Assembly: GCA_963739805.1 (NCBI GenBank)
Contig: CAVUBJ010000005.1
Location: forward strand, 21,163 to 85,162
Direction of reading: 5' to 3'
DNA length: 64,000 bases
Source: an uncultured Trueperaceae bacterium
GTDB taxonomy: Bacteria; Deinococcota; Deinococci; Deinococcales; Trueperaceae
In this document: one piece after another, positions 42,558 through 53,474 of the stretch
Layout: each line of letters opens with the position of its first letter
Position numbering within the stretch: the stretch's first letter is position 1
Translations under genes and position numbers: made by a program
The notes under the pieces: generated by a model
The model's database searches: none
What the model was told of the DNA's origin: nothing
What the model saw: the letters and a program-made list of their open reading frames with translations, nothing else

Positions 42558-43856
42558 TCAGGGATAGAGGCGCGTGAGCATGCGCGGGAAGGGCACGACC
42601 TCGCGGAGGTGGCGCGCCCCCGTGATCCACGCCAGGGTCCGTTCGAGGCCGATCCCGAAGCCGGAGTGCGGCACGCTGCCGTAGCGGCGGAGGTCCAGGT
42701 ACCAGGCGAAGGCCTCCTCGGGCAACCCGTGCTCGCGGATGCGGCTGCGCAGCAGCGCCTCGTCGTGGATGCGCTGGGAGCCCCCGATGAGCTCGCCGTA
42801 GCCCTCCGGGGCGAGCATGTCGTCGCACAGCACGCGGGTCGGGTCCCCAGCCAGCGGCTGCATGTAGAACGCCTTGGTCTTGGTGGGCCACTTCTCCACC
42901 AGCACGGGGCGGTCGAAGCGCTCACCCAGGATGGTCTCGTGAGGCGCGCCGAAGTCCTCGCCCCAGGCGAGCGGCTCCCCGTGCTCGGCCAGGATCTCGA
43001 GGGCGCGGTCGTAGCTCAGCCGGGGGAAGTCACCGTTGGCCGTCGGCTCGAGCCTCGCCACATCGCGCTCGAGCATGTCGAGCTCGGGCCGCCGCCGCTC
43101 GAGCACGCGTTCGACGAGGTACTGCAGCAAAGCCTCCTGCAGCGCCATGTTGCCCTCGTGCTCGAGGAAGGCGACCTCCGGCTCCACCATCCAGAACTCC
43201 AGCAGGTGGCGGCGGGTCTTGCTCTTTTCGGCGCGGAAGGCGGGCCCGAAGGTGTAGACCTTGCCGAAGGCGAGCGCGCCCGCCTCGGCGTAGAGCTGGC
43301 CCGACTGCGACAGGTAGGCGTTGTCCTGCTCGAAGAGGTTGATCTCGAACAGATTGGTGGTGCCCTCGACCGCCGTGGACATGAAGAACGGAGCGTCGAA
43401 GCGCACGAAGCCGCGCTCCCCGAAGAAGTCGTGGATGGCCCGCTCGAGCTCGTCCCGGATGCGCAGGATCGCCCACGGTGTGCGGTGCCGCAGGTACAGG
43501 TGGCGGTGCTCGAAGAGGAAGTCGACGCCGTGCTCCTTGGGCGTGATGGGGTAGTCGACCGTGGCGGACACCACGCGCACGTCCCGGAGCCCGAGTTCGA
43601 CGCCGCTGGGCGCCCGGGCATCGGCGCGCACCTCCCCCGTCACGACCACGCTGGTCTCCTGGGTGAGCCCCTTGGCGAGCTCGAAGCGCTCGTCGCCCAC
43701 CTCGCTGCGTACGACGACGCCCTGCACGAACCCGCTCCCGTCGCGGAGCTGGAGGAAGGCGATCTTGCCGCTCGAGCGGACGTTGGTGACCCAGCCGGCC
43801 ACCTCCACGGTGTCGCCTTGGTGGCGCGGCAGCAGGTCGATCGGGATCGGAGCCAT
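42558..43856 (-). CDS. asnS: asparagine--tRNA ligase
   Basis: Class II aaRS motifs [21 protein letters not shown] and [13 protein letters not shown]-terminal OB fold. Start [10 protein letters not shown]; the 43 aa upstream in the track ORF was rejected. Confidence 0.9.
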
Positions 43857-46574: not shown

Positions 46575-47837
46575 TCAGCCGAGCGCCGCGCGCAGGGTGG
46601 ACTCCAGCTCGCCCTCGGGCACCTCGCGCTGATCGCCGCTGTCGAGCTGCTTGAGCTGGATGGTGCCGTGCGCACGCTCCCGCTCCCCGCGCAGGCCGGC
46701 GAAACGGGCGCCGCTGCGGTCGGCGTCGCGCAACCCCTTGCCGGGATTGCGGCGCACGTAGGCGTACTCGACGTGCCACCGGCGGCGCAGGCGCGCGGCC
46801 AGGGCGGCCACCTCCGGCACCGCCGCGTCGTCCATCGGAACCAGGAACACCGCCGGACGCGGCGCCTCGTCGGCCCTCACGCCCTCCTCCGCCATGGCGT
46901 CGAGGACCCGCTCGATGCCCAGGGCCCAGCCCACGCCGGGAAGGGCGGGACCGCCGAGGCTCTCGATGAGCCCGTCGTAGCGGCCCCCGCCGCCCAGGGC
47001 CGACTGGGCGCCGATCCCGCCGTAGTGGGACTCGAAGGCCGTCCTGCGGTAGTAGTCGAGCCCCCGCACGATGGCGGGGTCGATCTCGTAGGGGATCCCC
47101 CAGTCGTCCAGGTAGACCTGGACCTGCTCGAGGTGGGCGCGCGCCGCGGCGCCCACCATGTCCAACGGCCGCTTGAGGCCGTCCAGGAGCGCCTGGTCGC
47201 CGGCGTCCTTGCTGTCCAACACCCGCATCGGGTTGAGGCGCAGGCGTTCCTGGCTCGTGGGCGTGAGCTCCGCGCTCCGCGGCGCCAGCGCCTGCCGCAG
47301 GTAGGCGTTGTAGGCCGCGCGGTCCTCGGGATCCCCGACCGAACCGAGCCGCACGTGGTGAGACTTCAGCCCGCAGGCCTCCAGCACGCCGTACAGCAGC
47401 GCGATGGACTCGGCGTCGGCCAGCGCCTGGGGCAGCCCGATGATCTCCAGGTTCACCTGGTGGAACTGGCGGAACCGGCCGCGCTGCACGTTCTCCGCGC
47501 GGAACAGTGGGCCGGAGCTCCACAGCTTGACCGGGCTCGGCAGCGTGTGCATGCCGTGCTCGATGAAGGCGCGCAGCACGCCGGCGGTGAACTCCGGCCG
47601 CAGCGTGAGACTGCGCCCGCCGCGGTCCTCGAAGGTGTACATCTCCTTCTGGACCACCAGGTCGGCGCTCTCGCCGACGGTCTTGGCGAAGACCTCGCTG
47701 TACTCGAACACTGGCGTGCTCAGCCTGCGGGCGCCGCCGCGGCCGAGGACCGACGCCACGGCGCGCTCGAGGTGCGCCCAGGCGGCTTGCTGGTCCGGCA
47801 GGATGTCGTGGGTGCCCTTGACGGCCTGAAGCTTCAT
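46575..47837 (-). CDS. hisS: histidine--tRNA ligase
   Basis: KGTHDILPD, RPEFTAGVLRAF, GGGGRYDGL. Start MKLQAVKG. Confidence 0.93.
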   Translation of the reverse strand: MKLQAVKGTHDILPDQQAAWAHLERAVASVLGRGGARRLSTPVFEYSEVFAKTVGESADLVVQKEMYTFEDRGGRSLTLRPEFTAGVLRAFIEHGMHTLPSPVKLWSSGPLFRAENVQRGRFRQFHQVNLEIIGLPQALADAESIALLYGVLEACGLKSHHVRLGSVGDPEDRAAYNAYLRQALAPRSAELTPTSQERLRLNPMRVLDSKDAGDQALLDGLKRPLDMVGAAARAHLEQVQVYLDDWGIPYEIDPAIVRGLDYYRRTAFESHYGGIGAQSALGGGGRYDGLIESLGGPALPGVGWALGIERVLDAMAEEGVRADEAPRPAVFLVPMDDAAVPEVAALAARLRRRWHVEYAYVRRNPGKGLRDADRSGARFAGLRGERERAHGTIQLKQLDSGDQREVPEGELESTLRAALG

Positions 47838-47914
47838 GGTGGGTGAGTCTACCGCGTGGTGGCCGCGCCGCCGCGCTGGTCCGGGGCCCGGCGGGCGCCG
47901 CGGCGGCACATGGC

Positions 47915-47942
47915 AACGGGGCCGCCCGCCGGCGGCCCCGTT
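47915..47942. terminator. perfect 12-bp GC stem-loop between the convergent-side lipoprotein gene end and the hisS start
   Basis: Sequence aacggggccgcc-cgcc-ggcggccccgtt; no U tract (GC-rich genome). Confidence 0.4.
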
Positions 47943-47962
47943 GCGCCATCTTCAGGAGGCCC

Positions 47963-48325
47963 TCAGGGGAGGTTGGCGGGGACCCCGTTGCTCTTGATAC
48001 CCGCCACGACCACGAAGATGAAGCCCGAGCCGGCCCCCTCCGGGACCGAGAACTCGATGCGCGTGGGCGTCCAGGCGTTGGGGGTGATCTTCATGCCGCC
48101 GTCACCGTTCATGTTGGCGCCGGCGATGACGTAGCTGTCGCTGGCGTTGCCGTTCTGGCCGTCACCGAAGTAGCGGCCCTGCAACACCACCGAGCCGTTG
48201 CCCGCCTGCGGAACCGTCACGGAGACGAGGGTGGGGACCACATTGGTCTCCACCGAAGGGGTGGGGGCGCAGGCGGCCAGCACGACGGCCAGCAACCCGA
48301 GTGGAATCCAGGCAAGACGCTTCAC
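47963..48325 (-). CDS. small lipoprotein (120 aa)
   Basis: GTG start with a GAGGAGG RBS. Lipobox LAAC. Beta-rich IPT/TIG-like body. Confidence 0.6.
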   Translation of the reverse strand: MKRLAWIPLGLLAVVLAACAPTPSVETNVVPTLVSVTVPQAGNGSVVLQGRYFGDGQNGNASDSYVIAGANMNGDGGMKITPNAWTPTRIEFSVPEGAGSGFIFVVVAGIKSNGVPANLP

Positions 48326-48465
48326 GGTGTCCTCCTCGCTGTCCAGAGCGTACGGGCCGTCGCCCTGCGGCGTCAATGGGACTTTTCATAACGATCCGGG
48401 CGCTCCGGCACGGCCCTCCCGCGGCGCCCCGCGGCCCACGCGCGGCCCACGGTACGATACCTCCC

Positions 48466-49047
48466 GTGACCAGCCACTACTTCGCCTACCTCGCCCGCAT
48501 GAAGTTCATCATGCGCTGGGGCCTGATGCGCAACACCCGTGCCGAGAACACCCAGGAGCACAGCATGCAGGTGGCCGTCGTCGCCCACGCGCTGGCGATC
48601 ATCGCCAACCGTCTCTACGGCGGCGACGTCGATCCCGAGAGGACCGCGCTGCTCGCCGTCTACCACGACGCGGAGGAGGTCATCACCGGCGACGTGCCGA
48701 CCCCCATCAAGTACTTCAACCCCCAGATCGCCGAGGCCATGGACGGTATCGAGATGGTCGCCAGGCGGCGCCTGCTGGCGATGCTGCCCGAGGCCCTGCG
48801 CGAGGATTTCGAGGCCCTGTACTTCCACCAGGAAGAGGACGCCGCCGCCTGGCGCCTGGTGAAGGCTGCCGACAAGCTCACGGCGTACCTGAAGTGCGTC
48901 GAGGAGGCCAAGGCGGGCAACGAGGAGTTCAGCCGCGCCGAGCAGGCCATCGCCGCGGATCTGCAGGCCTCCGAGGAGCCGGCCGTGCGCTACTTCCTGG
49001 AGACCTTCGTGCCCAGCTTCCGGCTGACATTGGACGAGCTGAACTGA
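48466..49047 (+). CDS. yfbR: HD-domain 5'-deoxynucleotidase (YfbR-like)
   Basis: VTSHYFAYLARMKFIMRWGLMRN...EHSMQVAVVAHALA...YHDAEEVITGDVPTP, collinear with E. coli YfbR. GTG start 7 nt after a TACGAT -10-like hexamer. Confidence 0.85.
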   Translation: MTSHYFAYLARMKFIMRWGLMRNTRAENTQEHSMQVAVVAHALAIIANRLYGGDVDPERTALLAVYHDAEEVITGDVPTPIKYFNPQIAEAMDGIEMVARRRLLAMLPEALREDFEALYFHQEEDAAAWRLVKAADKLTAYLKCVEEAKAGNEEFSRAEQAIAADLQASEEPAVRYFLETFVPSFRLTLDELN

Positions 49048-49347
49048 GGCGTGCGTCCGCACGAGGGCATGAGCGACGGCCTCGAGGGTCCCGCGCATCG
49101 CGGGTGCCCGCCGGAGCCCCTGGAGACGGTCACGCTGCGCTAGCATGGGCGCGTGCCCGACGGTCGCGCGCGACGAGCTTGCGGCCCCGCGTCCGGTGCC
49201 GGCGCCGCGGTACGCGCCGCGCACGCGCTCGATGTTCGGCCCGGCGCCGACGCCGTGCCTGAGCCCGCCGCGTCGAGCGCGTCCGTCACTGCTTCGCGCG
49301 CAGCGCGGCCGACGCGGGCGGGCCGCGGCCGCCATCCGCAGGCGGAT

Positions 49348-49980
49348 ATGGACGCCGAGCGCCTGCTCGCGCTGCTCGCGCTGCTCGGTGGCCGGGGCAT
49401 CCCAACCTGGATCGACGGTGGATGGTGCGTCGACGCCTTGCTCGGGCGCCAGACGCGCGCCCACGACGACCTCGACCTGGCCGTGGCGCGCGAGGACGTG
49501 GAGCGCCTGTGCGCGGCCCTGGCGGAGGCGGGCTACGCGCCGTGGGATGACGGCACGGCCGGTTCGCGCTGCCCAGACGGCCTGGAGTACCTGGTGGACG
49601 AGCGTGGGCACCAGGTCGACGTGCACCGGGTCAGGTTCACGCCGGACGGGGACGGCGTGCACCGCATGGCGAACGGGGAGGACTGGATCTACCCCGCGCG
49701 CGCGTTCGCCGGCCGCGGCCGCGTACTGGGCCGCGAGGTCGCGTGCCTCGCGGCCGACGTCATGCTGGTGTGCCACACCACCGGCTACGCGCTGGACGCG
49801 GCCCACCGGGCGGACGCGGCGGCGCTGGCCGATGCCTTCGCGCTGCCGCTACCGTCCTTCCGTTGGGCCGAGGACGAGCCTGGCGAGCGCGCGGGGCCCG
49901 GGAACCAGCCGTCCGAGGGCGAGGCAATTGGCGGCGAAGCTGCCGGGGACGGGTCGCCCGGCCGAACAGACGAGGGCTGA
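49348..49980 (+). CDS. ANT(2'')-Ia family nucleotidyltransferase (PF10706-like; possible aminoglycoside nucleotidyltransferase)
   Basis: IPTWIDGGWCVDALLGRQTRAHDDLDL aligns almost residue for residue with ANT(2'')-Ia LPLWIGGGWAIDARLGRVTRKHDDIDL. Acidic Gly-rich C-terminal tail. Start could be as early as GTG 49153. Confidence 0.75.
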   Translation: MDAERLLALLALLGGRGIPTWIDGGWCVDALLGRQTRAHDDLDLAVAREDVERLCAALAEAGYAPWDDGTAGSRCPDGLEYLVDERGHQVDVHRVRFTPDGDGVHRMANGEDWIYPARAFAGRGRVLGREVACLAADVMLVCHTTGYALDAAHRADAAALADAFALPLPSFRWAEDEPGERAGPGNQPSEGEAIGGEAAGDGSPGRTDEG

Positions 49981-50126
49981 GCACCAAGGCCGCCTCGGTC
50001 TGTCACGCGGGCCCCCACGGCCAACATATGAGGCCGCGGCGGCCGGGGGAACCGCGGCCCTCCGGAGTCGCGGCGGCGGCCCCGCTGCGACGCGCGCGCT
50101 CTGATGTGCGCCCACGGGCCGGGGCC

Positions 50127-50372
50127 TTGCGCGGGGAGTACGATGCCCTGTTGTTCCACGGCGAGGACGACGGTCCGGCGTGGCGTTCGGTGAATGCCGC
50201 GGACGCGATCGCCGCCAACCTTACGTGCGCGGAGGAAACCAATGCGGGCAACGAGGAGCTCAGCCCCGCCGAGCAGGCCTTCGCGGCTGATCTCACCGCC
50301 TCCGAGGAGCCGGCCCCCCGCTGCTTCCTGGAGTCCTTCGTGCTCCGCTTCGGGTCGAGGTTGGACGAGTTC
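50127..50372 (+). pseudogene. decayed duplicate of the yfbR 3' end (about 82 codons, no start, stop lost)
   Basis: LRGEYDALLFHGEDDGPAWRSVNAADAIAANLTCAEETNAGNEELSPAEQAFAADLTASEEPAPRCFLESFVLRFGSRLDEF aligns with the yfbR C-terminus (about 60% identity). Embedded in a junk track ORF. Confidence 0.6.
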
Positions 50373-50385
50373 AAGGGACGACGTG

Positions 50386-50420
50386 CACATGTTCACGAGC
50401 GTTGTGCTCGTGAACATGTG
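50386..50420. repeat. perfect palindrome A (15-bp arms, 5-nt spacer)
   Basis: CACATGTTCACGAGC-gttgt-GCTCGTGAACATGTG, immediately after the yfbR remnant and 210 bp upstream of mgtE. Confidence 0.8.
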
Positions 50421-50477
50421 AAAGTTGGCGCCCGGCGGGCCGCATGGGCCTGCGCGTGGCGCGCCCGCCCGCCGGCG

Positions 50478-50507
50478 CTTGACGGCGCGCAGCATCGCGG
50501 CCTAGTG
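50478..50507 (+). promoter_or_regulatory. candidate sigma70-type promoter of mgtE (TTGACG-N18-TAGTGT), about 115-nt leader
   Basis: Hexamer match only; no M-box-like riboswitch recognised in the leader. Confidence 0.3.
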
Positions 50508-50629
50508 TCGCTGGGGTCGTGCCCGGGGCGGGGGAGACCGGCGACGCGCACGACCGGCCGGGTGGGGCACGCCGCGCCCCGCCGGCGAACACTCGCAAGC
50601 GATTCACGCCCTCGGGCGGAGGTGACACG

Positions 50630-52021
50630 ATGGTCCAGGCCCCGGATCTGGAGACGCTGCGCGAGGAGCTCCAGGCGCTGGTGGCGCAGCGCCGCTTCGA
50701 CGTCCTGCGCGAGACGCTGGCGGACATGGAGCCGCCGGACCTTGGCGACGTCATGGACGGCCTGCCGCACGAGGCCGAGGCCGTCGTGTTCCGGGTCCTG
50801 CCCAAGGACCTCGCCGCCCAGACCTTCGAGTACCTGCCGTTCGACGCCCAGGAGCGCCTGCTGAAGGCGATGGGTGACCGCGAGGTGGGGGCGATCCTCA
50901 ACGACATGTCGCCGGACGACCGCACGGCGTTGCTCGAGGAGCTCCCGGGTAAAGTCACCAAGCGCCTGCTCAACCTGCTCACGCCCGAGGAGCGCCACGT
51001 CGCCACGCGCCTGCTGGGCTACCCCGAGGACTCCATCGGCCGTTTGATGACGCCCGATTACGTCGCCATCAAGCCCCACTGGACCGTGGCGGAGGCGCTG
51101 GCGCACGTGCGCGAGTTCGGCCGCGACTCCGAGACGCTCAACGTCGTCTACGTCACCGCCAAGGGGGGCCGACTCGTCGACGACATCCGCATGCGGGAGC
51201 TGCTGCTGGTGGAACCCGAGACGCGGGTCGAGGCCCTGATGGACGAGCAGTTCGTCGCCCTGCTGGCCACCGACGACCAGGAGGAGGCGGTGGCCGTATT
51301 CCGGAGGCTGGACCGTACCGCCCTGCCGGTGACCGACACGGGCGGCATCCTGGTGGGAATCGTGACGGTCGACGACGTCCTGGACGTCGCCGAGGAGGAA
51401 GCCACCGAGGACTTCCAGATGCTCGGCGGCACCGAGGCGCTCGAGGAGCCCTACCTCGACATCGGCATCCCCATGATGGTGCGCAAGCGTGCGGTGTGGC
51501 TCGTGGTCCTGCTGATCGGCGAGATGCTGACCGCCACCGCCCTCGGCTTCTTCGAGCACGAGATCGCCAGCGCCGTTGTGCTGGCGCTGTTCATCCCCCT
51601 GATCATCTCCAGCGGCGGCAACACCGGCTCCCAGGCGGCCACGCTGGTCACACGGGCCATGGCGCTGGGCGAGGTGGGCTTGCGCGACTGGTGGCGGGTG
51701 ATGCGGCGCGAGTTGGTGGCCGGCCTATCCCTGGGCGTGATCCTCGGCACCGTGGGCTACCTGCGCATCGCCGTGTGGGCGCTCGTGTTCGACAGCTACG
51801 GTCCGCACTGGTCGCTCATCGGCCTGACGGTGGCGGTGTCGTTGGTGGGCGTGGTGCTGTGGGGTTCGCTCACGGGGTCGCTGCTCCCCATCCTCCTCAA
51901 GCGACTCGGCGCGGACCCCGCGGCCTCCTCCGCGCCTTTCGTGGCCACCATCGTGGACGTCACCGGCATCGTGATCTTCTTCTCCGTGGCGGCCACGCTG
52001 CTGCGCGGCACCCTCCTGTAG
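50630..52021 (+). CDS. mgtE: magnesium transporter MgtE
   Basis: N-domain, tandem CBS and C-terminal 5-TM domain. GGAGGTG RBS. The 37 aa upstream in the track ORF was rejected. Confidence 0.92.
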   Translation: MVQAPDLETLREELQALVAQRRFDVLRETLADMEPPDLGDVMDGLPHEAEAVVFRVLPKDLAAQTFEYLPFDAQERLLKAMGDREVGAILNDMSPDDRTALLEELPGKVTKRLLNLLTPEERHVATRLLGYPEDSIGRLMTPDYVAIKPHWTVAEALAHVREFGRDSETLNVVYVTAKGGRLVDDIRMRELLLVEPETRVEALMDEQFVALLATDDQEEAVAVFRRLDRTALPVTDTGGILVGIVTVDDVLDVAEEEATEDFQMLGGTEALEEPYLDIGIPMMVRKRAVWLVVLLIGEMLTATALGFFEHEIASAVVLALFIPLIISSGGNTGSQAATLVTRAMALGEVGLRDWWRVMRRELVAGLSLGVILGTVGYLRIAVWALVFDSYGPHWSLIGLTVAVSLVGVVLWGSLTGSLLPILLKRLGADPAASSAPFVATIVDVTGIVIFFSVAATLLRGTLL

Positions 52022-52490: not shown

Positions 52491-53474
52491 TCAGTCCGCC
52501 AGGGCGCCGCGCAGGGCGCGCCAGGAGACCTCGGCGTCGGCAGAACGTGCCTCCGCCCGGCGCAGCGTCGCCACCGCGGTCGCGACGTCGGTGAGGCGCC
52601 AGCGGGTGCGGTAGAGGTCCAGCGCGGCGCGCTCCATCGTCGCCGCGGCGCCGGCGGTCCGTCGGTAGGCCCGCCAAGCGGCGAGCCGCCTGCCGAGCAG
52701 CAGGTGCAGGTCGCGCTCCGCCGGTGCCAGGGCCACGGTGTCCCAATCCACCAACGCGAGGCGTGCATTCGGGCCAGCGATCACGTTTCCCGGGTGGGGC
52801 TCGCCGTGGGTCACGACCCAGGGGGAGCCTCGCCGCCGCAACCGGGCGACGCCGGCGTCGTACGCCTGCAGCTCGCGGACCAGGTGACGCGCGCGGGCCT
52901 CGAGGCGGCGGCGGGTGGGCTCGGCGTACGGGCCGGTGGTCCACGGCCTCGCGAGGTCTTCGAGGGCGCGCTCGAGCACGTCGCGCGCCTGCAGCGCGAA
53001 GTCCTCGCGCGGCGCCAGATCGGTCGGGAGGCGTGTGGTGGCCGCGTGCAGGCGTCCGATCGCCGAGGCCAAGCGGCGGCGCTCCCGGGCCGTGCGCGCG
53101 GCACCGAAGCCGCGCGTCGTACCGTACACGAAGGGCGCCAGATGGACGGCGTAGTGGTGACAGAGGCGGCGCAAGGGGACGCCACGGCCGTCGGGTAGCG
53201 GTGCGATCACGAAGCCCAGGTCGGCGCTCTCCCGCAGGGCCATGGCCGTGCGGAGCGCGCGCATCAAGTGGTCGAAGGCGGTGTCGGGGCCGGCGGCGTG
53301 CTTGATCTCGGCAACGCTCACGAAGCCGACCCGACCCGCTGCGTCCATCGCCCGCCAGTGGTACCCACCGAAGCCGACCGGCAGGTGGCGCAGGGTCACC
53401 GGCCGCAGGCCCCACCCCGCGACGAGCTCCTCGGCGAGCCGGGCGGGGTCCAGGTCCGGCGGTGGATCGTGCAC
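52491..53474 (-). CDS. APH/phosphotransferase enzyme family protein (aminoglycoside phosphotransferase-like kinase)
   Basis: Catalytic loop THGEPHPGNVI (HGDxxxxN-like) and LVDWDTVALAPAERD (DWD is the DFG equivalent). Size 327 aa. Substrate unknown. Confidence 0.7.
   Translation of the reverse strand: MHDPPPDLDPARLAEELVAGWGLRPVTLRHLPVGFGGYHWRAMDAAGRVGFVSVAEIKHAAGPDTAFDHLMRALRTAMALRESADLGFVIAPLPDGRGVPLRRLCHHYAVHLAPFVYGTTRGFGAARTARERRRLASAIGRLHAATTRLPTDLAPREDFALQARDVLERALEDLARPWTTGPYAEPTRRRLEARARHLVRELQAYDAGVARLRRRGSPWVVTHGEPHPGNVIAGPNARLALVDWDTVALAPAERDLHLLLGRRLAAWRAYRRTAGAAATMERAALDLYRTRWRLTDVATAVATLRRAEARSADAEVSWRALRGALAD

Follow-up and report, generated by a model that had tools for sequence, protein, structure and literature searches.

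A probable recombination scar around an accessory nucleotidyltransferase gene in the conserved yfbR–mgtE spacer of a Trueperaceae bacterium

Gene order and the repeated 3' end of yfbR

The stretch of DNA analysed here (the window; 64,000 nucleotides, nt) belongs to an uncultured Trueperaceae bacterium of the Deinococcota (GCA_963739805.1, contig CAVUBJ010000005.1, forward strand 21,163–85,162) and is of high GC content, about 72%. Within it, a gene for a nucleotidyltransferase of the Lnu(A)/ANT(2'')-Ia type lies between an intact yfbR gene and a truncated second copy of the yfbR 3' end, which is followed in turn by a perfect palindrome (pal), a promoter-like site and the magnesium transporter gene mgtE (Table 1). 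A comparison with about 45 related Trueperaceae loci leads us to regard this arrangement as probably a recombination scar around an accessory gene that occupies a conserved spacer.

Table 1. Features between yfbR and mgtE, in positions of the window
Feature	Position	Strand	Evidence and remarks
Intact yfbR (5'-deoxynucleotidase, HD domain)	48466..49047	+	PF12917, E=2.8e-70
Repeat copy 1, 3' 256 nt of intact yfbR	48788..49043	+	about codons 98–182 (numbering of the 182-residue version); repeat search
Decayed pal relic (pal') just after the intact yfbR stop	49056..49084	+	positionally orthologous to L039 CACGAGTTCATGAGCA
Spacer segment absent from L039, with GC hairpin and CGCTAGCAT motif	49085..49268	+	insertion/deletion relative to L039, 184 nt
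PF10706 nucleotidyltransferase, Lnu(A)/ANT(2'')-Ia type, 210 residues	49348..49980	+	Pfam E=1.8e-26, 93.5 bits versus cut-off 21
Transferase–remnant spacer	49981..50118	+	last 89 nt common to L039; first 47 nt window-specific
yfbR remnant, repeat copy 2, 5'-truncated pseudogene fragment	50119..50375	+	stop lost, GGA at 50373–50375
pal, perfect palindrome, resident hairpin element of the yfbR–mgtE spacer	50386..50420	.	15-nt arms, 5-nt loop
Promoter-like TTGACG-18 nt-TAGTGT upstream of mgtE	50479..50508	+	conservation only
mgtE magnesium transporter, conserved downstream neighbour	50630..52021	+	PF01769, PF03448, CBS domains; preceded by ribosome-binding site GGAGGTGA

The intact yfbR scores above the equivalog cut-off of its NCBIfam model (NF003009, 254.5 versus 122) and exhibits ratios of nonsynonymous to synonymous divergence (dN/dS) of 0.02–0.24 against its relatives. 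Its start is most likely the GTG at 48466, which gives a protein of 193 amino acids (aa), the commonest homologue length; the yfbR searches used a 182-aa version that begins at ATG 48499. A first-pass annotation made from the sequence had claimed that the 3' end of yfbR recurs downstream and had proposed a nucleotide-level alignment of the two segments. This alignment reveals a direct repeat (48788–49043 and 50119–50374) of 256 nt that is gapless, 76% identical and spaced by 1331 nt from start to start, and at the protein level 51 of 83 residues are identical (61%; BLASTP E=1e-31 for the pair). The nucleotidyltransferase gene indeed sits between the intact gene and the remnant, as had been annotated. 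Upstream of 50119, extension of the homology is no better than in shuffled sequences, and the repeat boundary at 50118/50119 is sharp. No third yfbR-like sequence is present within the window.

Two relatives serve as the main points of reference. Among the relatives whose junction can be read, L046 is the closest; its yfbR is 87% identical in aa and sister to that of the window in 199 of 200 bootstraps of the full-length gene. L039 is much closer, with nt identities to the window of 96% for yfbR and 91% for the transferase gene. The intact yfbR of the window is not a mosaic: identity to L046 is 87.9% in its 5' part and 87.0% in its 3' part. With the two parts about equally close to L046, the intact gene therefore carries its native 3' end.

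The downstream copy is a dead pseudogene fragment that decays neutrally. Taken alone it still matches the YfbR-like Pfam family (PF12917, positions 108–180 of 182, E=4.8e-11), yet it is no complete HD domain with a start, a stop and purifying selection. The loss of the stop codon that had been noted at first reading is a change of TGA to GGA. The accompanying statement that the fragment lacks a start needs a qualification, as an in-frame ATG at 50028 opens a reading frame of 279 codons; this frame is judged spurious, because the ATG lies inside a 47-nt segment absent from L039 and because the remnant evolves neutrally. The evidence for neutrality comes from the substitutions specific to the remnant (that is, relative to both the window yfbR and L046), which are distributed over the three codon positions as 16/14/14, whereas changes specific to the window yfbR (2/0/9) and to L046 (2/4/10) sum to 4/4/19 for the functional copies (Fisher's exact test, third position against the other two, remnant against functional copies, p=0.003). 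Such an even distribution over codon positions therefore points to neutral evolution of the remnant. The possibility that the fragment represents a second yfbR paralogue, which would have spoken against a duplication scar, finds no counterpart in the family: no relative has a second yfbR copy, and with the remnant evolving neutrally the scar is a true one.

The same substitutions give a measure of age. The remnant branch carries 44 changes in 246 sites, a Jukes–Cantor distance of about 0.20, which is roughly half of the synonymous divergence (dS) between the window and L046 (0.39) and far above that between the window and L039 (0.14). Thus, the remnant dates from roughly the time at which the window and L046 separated. 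Neighbour-joining trees built on the 246-nt segment place it within the clade of the window, L039 and L046 in 182 of 200 bootstraps (91%).

The yfbR–mgtE spacer in related loci

The search with yfbR returned 28 Trueperaceae loci at 63–82% aa identity, with none closer among species representatives. A tblastn comparison of the window proteins delineates a conserved block of aspS, hisS and a small lipoprotein-like gene on the minus strand, followed by yfbR and mgtE. In 23 related Trueperaceae loci yfbR is directly followed by mgtE across a spacer of 38–257 nt that holds no transferase gene; conservation of the transferase gene beside yfbR throughout the family, which would have contradicted an insertion, is thus not what these loci exhibit. 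The position of mgtE is unchanged and its product is 66–84% identical in aa across the family. The ancestral Trueperaceae order is yfbR, pal and mgtE, without the transferase gene, and L046 illustrates it: yfbR is followed there by pal, a promoter-like TTGACG-18-TAGATT and mgtE. The latter motif occurs with the same spacing upstream of mgtE in L001 as well, such that the window, L046 and L001 have in common the pattern TTGACG-18 nt-TAG(A/T)(T/G)T. The corresponding site of the window lies below threshold in a consensus promoter scan, and a scan of 47800–51200 against the Rfam covariance models (E up to 1) gave no match, be it an M-box or Mg riboswitch or another known RNA.

The transferase gene is a patchy, lineage-restricted accessory insert of this spacer. 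L039 carries yfbR, the transferase gene and the following spacer up to one base before the remnant start, where its contig ends. In L001/L040 the gene is likewise located in the yfbR–mgtE spacer (yfbR 82% and transferase 63–64% identical in aa), with neither palindrome nor remnant, and its stop codon falls inside the conserved -35 hexamer (TTGACG) of the mgtE promoter-like site (L001 7170–7215, and L040). L047 reads yfbR, pal, about 100 nt and the start of the transferase gene, at which point the contig ends; L052 reads yfbR, transferase gene, a single pal and mgtE; and in L053/L054 the gene is enclosed by two pal copies, between yfbR and mgtE. The two L053 pal cores match at 21 of 24 nt, a score reached by 2 of 500 shuffles. 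Among 40 homologues the spacer transferases cluster together, and ~45 nt upstream of the ATG are common to all of them, while homologues at 55–59% identity are found in unrelated contexts. L025 (6550–7300) and L026 (same position) have in the yfbR–mgtE spacer a gene of another kind, a Flavodoxin_5 gene (PF12724, E=5e-21) on the opposite strand, which is a second, different insertion into the spacer.

The synonymous divergence between the window and L039 amounts to 0.147 for the transferase gene and 0.14 for yfbR, as expected for co-inheritance, and the dN/dS of the transferase gene in three comparisons (0.34–0.48) indicates weak purifying selection; by these comparisons the gene is intact, inherited together with its flanks and under weak constraint. 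Its product is found in a public protein collection with an identical start (P0001), and a metagenome scan with the protein returned only L039 again and one homologue at 51%. A recent spread from plasmids was considered and rejected, the best plasmid matches reaching no more than about 40% identity.

The palindrome is the second resident of the spacer. Its perfectly complementary arms (50386–50400 and 50406–50420), which lie 11 nt past the former stop codon of the remnant, bear out the perfect 35-bp palindrome reported by the first-pass annotation, and the hairpin region 50376–50430 has a predicted folding energy of -31.8 kcal/mol. The arm sequence has no other occurrence within the window. 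A core of CACRAGC-N5-GCTYGTG likewise occurs once in the 64 kb and, in 9 related loci, once per locus and only in the yfbR–mgtE spacer, with looser versions in further loci. Pal is therefore a family-wide element that is ancestral at, and specific to, this spacer. Across 14 aligned copies the CAC/GTG ends are invariant and the fourth pair is G-U in 7, G-C in 5, A-U in 1 and A-C in 1, a pattern that slightly favours a hairpin in plus-strand RNA, although the aligned sequences are not independent. Three tandem copies occupy the spacers of L009, L012, L013 and L015 (stems GCACAAGC/GCTTGTGC), and seven loci in which yfbR nearly abuts mgtE (L014, L016, L020–L023 and L033) have none; the copy number of pal is therefore variable and the element dispensable. 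A REP-like dispersed repeat was rejected on account of the uniqueness of the motif in the window and in each 12-kb locus, and a dif or terminus site on account of the absence of a GC-skew switch.

A decayed counterpart of pal is located directly behind the intact yfbR. On its own, the relic of the window (pal') is not significant; the relic at the orthologous position of L039, CACGAGTTCATGAGCA, matches CACGAGTTCACGAGCA of L046 at 15 of 16 positions, a score reached by 4 of 1000 shuffles. The presence of a decayed pal behind the intact gene in both the window and L039 therefore implies that the duplicated unit consists of the yfbR 3' end together with pal. The two copies have fared differently, as the well-kept one adjoins the mgtE promoter, whereas that right after the intact yfbR is decayed. 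At the rate of the remnant (18% of sites changed) the chance that 30 pal arm positions stay unchanged would be ~0.003, assuming that the palindrome was already perfect. The perfect symmetry of the mgtE-proximal copy beside a remnant with 18% of its sites changed therefore argues for constraint on this copy and not on the one behind yfbR.

The palindrome had at first been described as the ancestral terminator, of which the former word holds and the latter is left unproven, because a U-tract is lacking, the terminator scan is empty and the well-kept copy stands by the mgtE promoter. The scan found no terminator-like site in 48300–50700: the stem is present, but it is followed by GAAAGTTGG with no T run, and a T run after pal is absent in every locus with pal examined. 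To judge by its sequence pattern, pal would fit an insulator or terminator that ends the yfbR–transferase unit, or an operator of mgtE, and not a function tied to the yfbR stop.

The CGCTAGCAT motif of the 184-nt segment resembles, by eye only, TGCTAGCTT and TGCTATCTT upstream of the transferase gene in L052 and L053; should this likeness reflect real homology, L039 would carry a deletion. The 47-nt window-specific segment (49982–50028) has TGAG microhomology at its flanks and holds the only in-frame ATG upstream of the remnant. A search for the origin of both segments found no source. The spacer at 49981–50118 has no significant similarity to yfbR or to the promoter and leader regions of mgtE, and two related candidates were rejected on the same grounds, namely that the transferase C-terminal tail plus spacer (49860–50118) is a decayed copy of the mgtE promoter/leader, and that the yfbR–transferase and remnant–mgtE spacers of the window are paralogous as wholes, the pal core being clearly duplicated only in L053.

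Family, fold and predicted activity of the transferase

The transferase consists of a catalytic domain (residues 1–170) and a disordered, low-complexity tail (171–210). The PF10706 match covers residues 71–225 of the long open reading frame (ORF) and profile positions 2–149 of 149. An AlphaFold2 model built from 40 homologues is confident for residues 1–170 (mean predicted local distance difference test score, pLDDT, of 86) and falls below 50 in the tail. The tail (49858–49980) is rich in Gly, Glu and Pro over ~40 residues in the window and L039 and is absent from the typical homologues of 168 aa. Its dN/dS in the window is the same as that of the domain (0.47), and the L053 transferase has a different C-terminal extension.

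The first-pass annotation had called the catalytic core nearly identical to that of clinical ANT(2'')-Ia, a description that the alignments do not sustain beyond the level of the Pfam family. Identity is 18 of 26 residues (69%) over P19–L44 and 22 of 43 over the whole aligned stretch, and the match (residues 8–56, E=1e-8) leaves nothing detectable beyond residue 56; the ANT(2'')-Ia model NF000064 likewise aligns only at residues 9–56, with 37.8 bits versus a cut-off of 350. The best sequence match among solved structures is instead Lnu(A) (4fo1, E=7e-12, residues 6–154), and the best NCBIfam match is Lnu(D) (63.6 versus a cut-off of 325), with Lnu(C) at 49.8 versus 300 and Lnu(A) at 47.1 versus 300. 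The protein thus stays far below every curated cut-off for resistance genes, those for ANT(2'')-Ia and Lnu(A/C/D/E/P) included. A Foldseek search with the model agrees with this order and puts Lnu(A) 4fo1 at the top (23% identity; template modelling score, TM, of 0.84 when normalised to the target), followed by ANT(2'')-Ia at about 0.70. By sequence and model, the transferase is an uncharacterised Lnu(A)-like member of PF10706 that is nearer to Lnu(A)/Lnu(D) than to ANT(2'')-Ia.

Its closest known systems are Lnu(A)/LinA and Lnu(D) (PDB 4FO1, 4WH5), with which it shares the PF10706 family, the similarity over residues 6–154 and the best structural match. It differs from them in that identity is only ~23% and the scores are 47–64 bits versus curated cut-offs of 300–350, in the extra 40-residue disordered C-terminal tail and in its location, which is chromosomal in Deinococcota whereas Lnu(A) and Lnu(D) are plasmid-borne in Firmicutes. 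With ANT(2'')-Ia (aadB; PDB 4WQK, 4XJE, 5CFS) it has in common the PF10706 family, the fold (TM about 0.70) and corresponding catalytic residues, but the similarity in sequence is limited to the N-terminal core and the window gene is not on an integron.

Residues R37, H39, D41, D43, D91 and H93 are invariant in the 40 homologues. The first four align with R40, H42, D44 and D46 of ANT(2'')-Ia, and D91, being invariant, is equated with D86 of ANT(2'')-Ia on the basis of the Lnu(A) alignment. In ANT(2'')-Ia, R40, H42, D44, D46 and D86 were identified by mutagenesis or structure as catalytic residues that act as Mg2+ ligands, catalytic base and triphosphate contacts (PMC4313920). Sequence and model together exhibit a nucleotidyltransferase fold of the Pol-beta type with two Mg-binding aspartates, a third acidic residue and an R-x-H motif ahead of the aspartates. 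The enzyme would most likely hold two Mg2+ by D41, D43 and D91 and transfer a nucleotidyl group from a nucleoside triphosphate to the hydroxyl of a small molecule, and lincosamide-like substrates are predicted to be somewhat more likely than aminoglycosides. A defence-system or toxin reading was rejected, the only matches to AbiEii being marginal (E=5e-4).

Origin of the scar and alternative explanations

The preferred account involves two events. A single nucleotidyltransferase gene would have been inserted into the yfbR–mgtE spacer in part of the Trueperaceae, its patchy occurrence being then the result of vertical descent with losses and/or of allele exchange by homologous recombination in the conserved flanks. 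In a second event, within the lineage of the window and at about the time of the L046 split, an extra copy of the stretch from yfbR codon ~98 through pal would have been left downstream of the transferase gene. Arrival and remnant formation are taken as separate events because the gene is shared with lineages that have no remnant (L001/L040, L047, L052 and L053) and that lie outside the young clade of the window, L039 and L046. The first-pass annotation had seen in the duplication the footprint of an old insertion or recombination that brought in or displaced a gene; the recombination scar and the lineage-restricted insert stand, whereas the remnant probably records a later recombination and not the arrival.

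Two routes would lead to this product equally well. Most likely, an allele with the gene recombined with an allele without it through one homologous crossover and one illegitimate join at 50118/50119; just as possibly, a circle that carried the repeat and the gene integrated by a single crossover. In either case the result would be an intact gene, followed by the cargo and then by a 5'-truncated copy that runs on into the native downstream sequence. The former would correspond to homology-facilitated illegitimate recombination, which de Vries and Wackernagel reportedly described in 2002 during natural transformation of Acinetobacter. Competence of the Trueperaceae is assumed here from Deinococcus and Thermus. 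As a concept, homology-facilitated illegitimate recombination is used in PMC3410848 and PMC8116780, and the likeness would consist of one homologous anchor and one sharp illegitimate junction, as at 50118/50119. Afterwards the extra piece of yfbR would have decayed neutrally, with the pal by the mgtE promoter kept perfect and the pal behind yfbR decaying. The direct repeats would moreover allow a precise loss of the transferase gene that regenerates an L046-like arrangement.

Several observations weigh against this account. Within the clade of the window, L039 and L046 the placement of the remnant is split (basal in 45%, with the window and L039 in 26%, with L046 in 26%), the trees are neighbour-joining trees on short sequences, and clade C has a support of only 76%. 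An older duplication might also appear young if the copies had undergone gene conversion, such that arrival and duplication could be one event. The remnant is present in one assembly only: the contig of L039 breaks off right at the left edge of the remnant, and L051, the corresponding mgtE contig from the same sample, begins within mgtE. Finally, the window and L001 differ more in the transferase gene (dS 0.83) than in its flanks (0.51–0.56), and strict vertical descent is therefore not certain.

The closest documented analogue for both architecture and loss route is icd-e14-icdC of E. coli K-12, where a duplicated 3' gene end likewise encloses cargo, the distal copy being a 5'-truncated C-terminal pseudogene, and where recombination between the copies removes the cargo and restores a working gene (PMC13626634). 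This analogy raises the alternative that a decayed site-specific integrative element at the yfbR 3' end brought a replacement 3' end, with the remnant being the displaced native end. The layout of intact gene, cargo flanked by a duplicated 3' end and truncated 3' pseudogene is the same as at icd (PMC13626634), and the sharp repeat boundary would agree with it. Against it, no integrase or other element gene is located between yfbR and mgtE in 6 gene-carrying lineages, the other gene-carrying loci have no remnant, and the cargo is only 1.07 kb. The 3' end borne by the intact yfbR is moreover native and not imported (87.0 versus 87.9% identity to L046). We thus consider an integrative element unlikely. 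The icd case also differs in other ways: e14 is a prophage of 15 kb that brings its own system for site-specific recombination, whereas the window has one 0.63-kb gene as cargo, no recombinase and two copies that are 24% diverged.

A recombination site is a further option, in which pal would be Xer/dif-like or attC-like, the transferase gene a cassette and the spacer a cassette hotspot. In L053 the gene has a pal on either side, and in the window a relic on one side and an intact copy on the other; the same spacer holds the Flavodoxin_5 gene in L025/L026, and ANT(2'')-Ia itself is a classical integron cassette. The duplication of the window, however, runs 256 nt past pal into yfbR, unlike the product of site-specific recombination. 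There is a single pal in L052 and none in L001/L040, nothing pal-like in the first 400 nt of the L025/L026 spacer, and three hairpins in tandem in some relatives, unlike dif. The neighbourhood has no recombinase gene, there is no GC-skew switch that would indicate a terminus, and no GTTRRRY/RYYYAAC integron core sites are seen in pal by inspection, a window-wide scan for intI not having been made. A recombination-site reading in this form is accordingly quite improbable. As to an integron cassette, the genes on either side of the spacer are housekeeping genes that are conserved in all relatives. The variant in which pal is a dedicated site where single-gene cassettes (Lnu/ANT-like, and flavodoxin-like in L025/L026) insert, duplicate and pop out with no linked recombinase fares only marginally better, and is still less probable than an integrative element. 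If true, it would amount to a chromosomal cassette site driven by a host recombinase, analogous to pdif modules or integron attC, with the remnant and the palindrome as a preserved attachment junction.

Two remaining alternatives carry very little credence. The remnant could be part of a live gene, an ORF from ATG 50028 to 50864 that reuses the C-terminal helices of YfbR, as its frame has stayed open through 82 codons, free of stops and indels, with an in-frame ATG ahead of it; yet its substitutions are even over codon positions, the ATG is in the 47-nt segment missing from L039, the ORF would have to continue across pal and the conserved mgtE promoter and then, out of frame with mgtE, past its start, long open frames are frequent at 72–75% GC, and the fragment is without the HD metal-binding motif, so that a live gene is scarcely credible. 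Equally remote is an assembly or binning artefact of a metagenome-assembled genome, which the uncultured source and the single assembly that spans the remnant might suggest, as copies of 76% identity do not collapse or chimerise in assembly, the independent assembly L039 (91–96% nt identity) reproduces yfbR, transferase gene and spacer up to the base before the remnant, and the remnant is joined to conserved pal–promoter–mgtE sequence.

Apart from the scar itself, two neighbouring genes were observed. Just downstream of mgtE, a 327-aa ORF on the minus strand (52494–53474) contains a kinase-type HGEPHPGN...DWD motif; its best solved relative is the spectinomycin phosphotransferase APH(9) (3i0o, E=7.5e-7), and it has no Pfam match even at E up to 10. 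The ORF is absent downstream of mgtE in the related loci, the synteny with L040 ending at mgtE, and it is possibly a second accessory gene of an antibiotic-modifying type, a candidate 2.5 kb from the transferase gene. A short frame-broken match to it (52–57% over 57 residues) occurs on the minus strand of L001 (10839–11010) and L040 (10196–10367), between FAD oxidoreductase and Asp dehydrogenase genes, and may be a pseudogene relic. On the other side, a second, distant class-II aspartyl/asparaginyl-tRNA synthetase-like gene (42582–43823, minus strand), 28% identical to aspS, is located upstream of a HAD hydrolase gene and aspS, and has the same place in most relatives.

The preferred reading of an accessory-gene insertion followed by a recombination scar describes an ordinary process and not a new kind of system, and the understanding of recombination or resistance is unchanged by it. 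What the locus provides is a datable natural example of an accessory gene from an antibiotic-modifying family that is held in, and would be precisely losable from, a conserved chromosomal spacer, with a neutrally decaying pseudogene fragment as internal clock. For resistome annotation it is a reminder that the Pfam name, taken by itself, would point wrongly to a gene for gentamicin resistance. For the Trueperaceae, it brings to light a locus-specific hairpin upstream of mgtE that could be a terminator, an insulator or an operator, and the transferase extends the Lnu(A)/ANT(2'')-Ia family by an uncharacterised branch from the Deinococcota.

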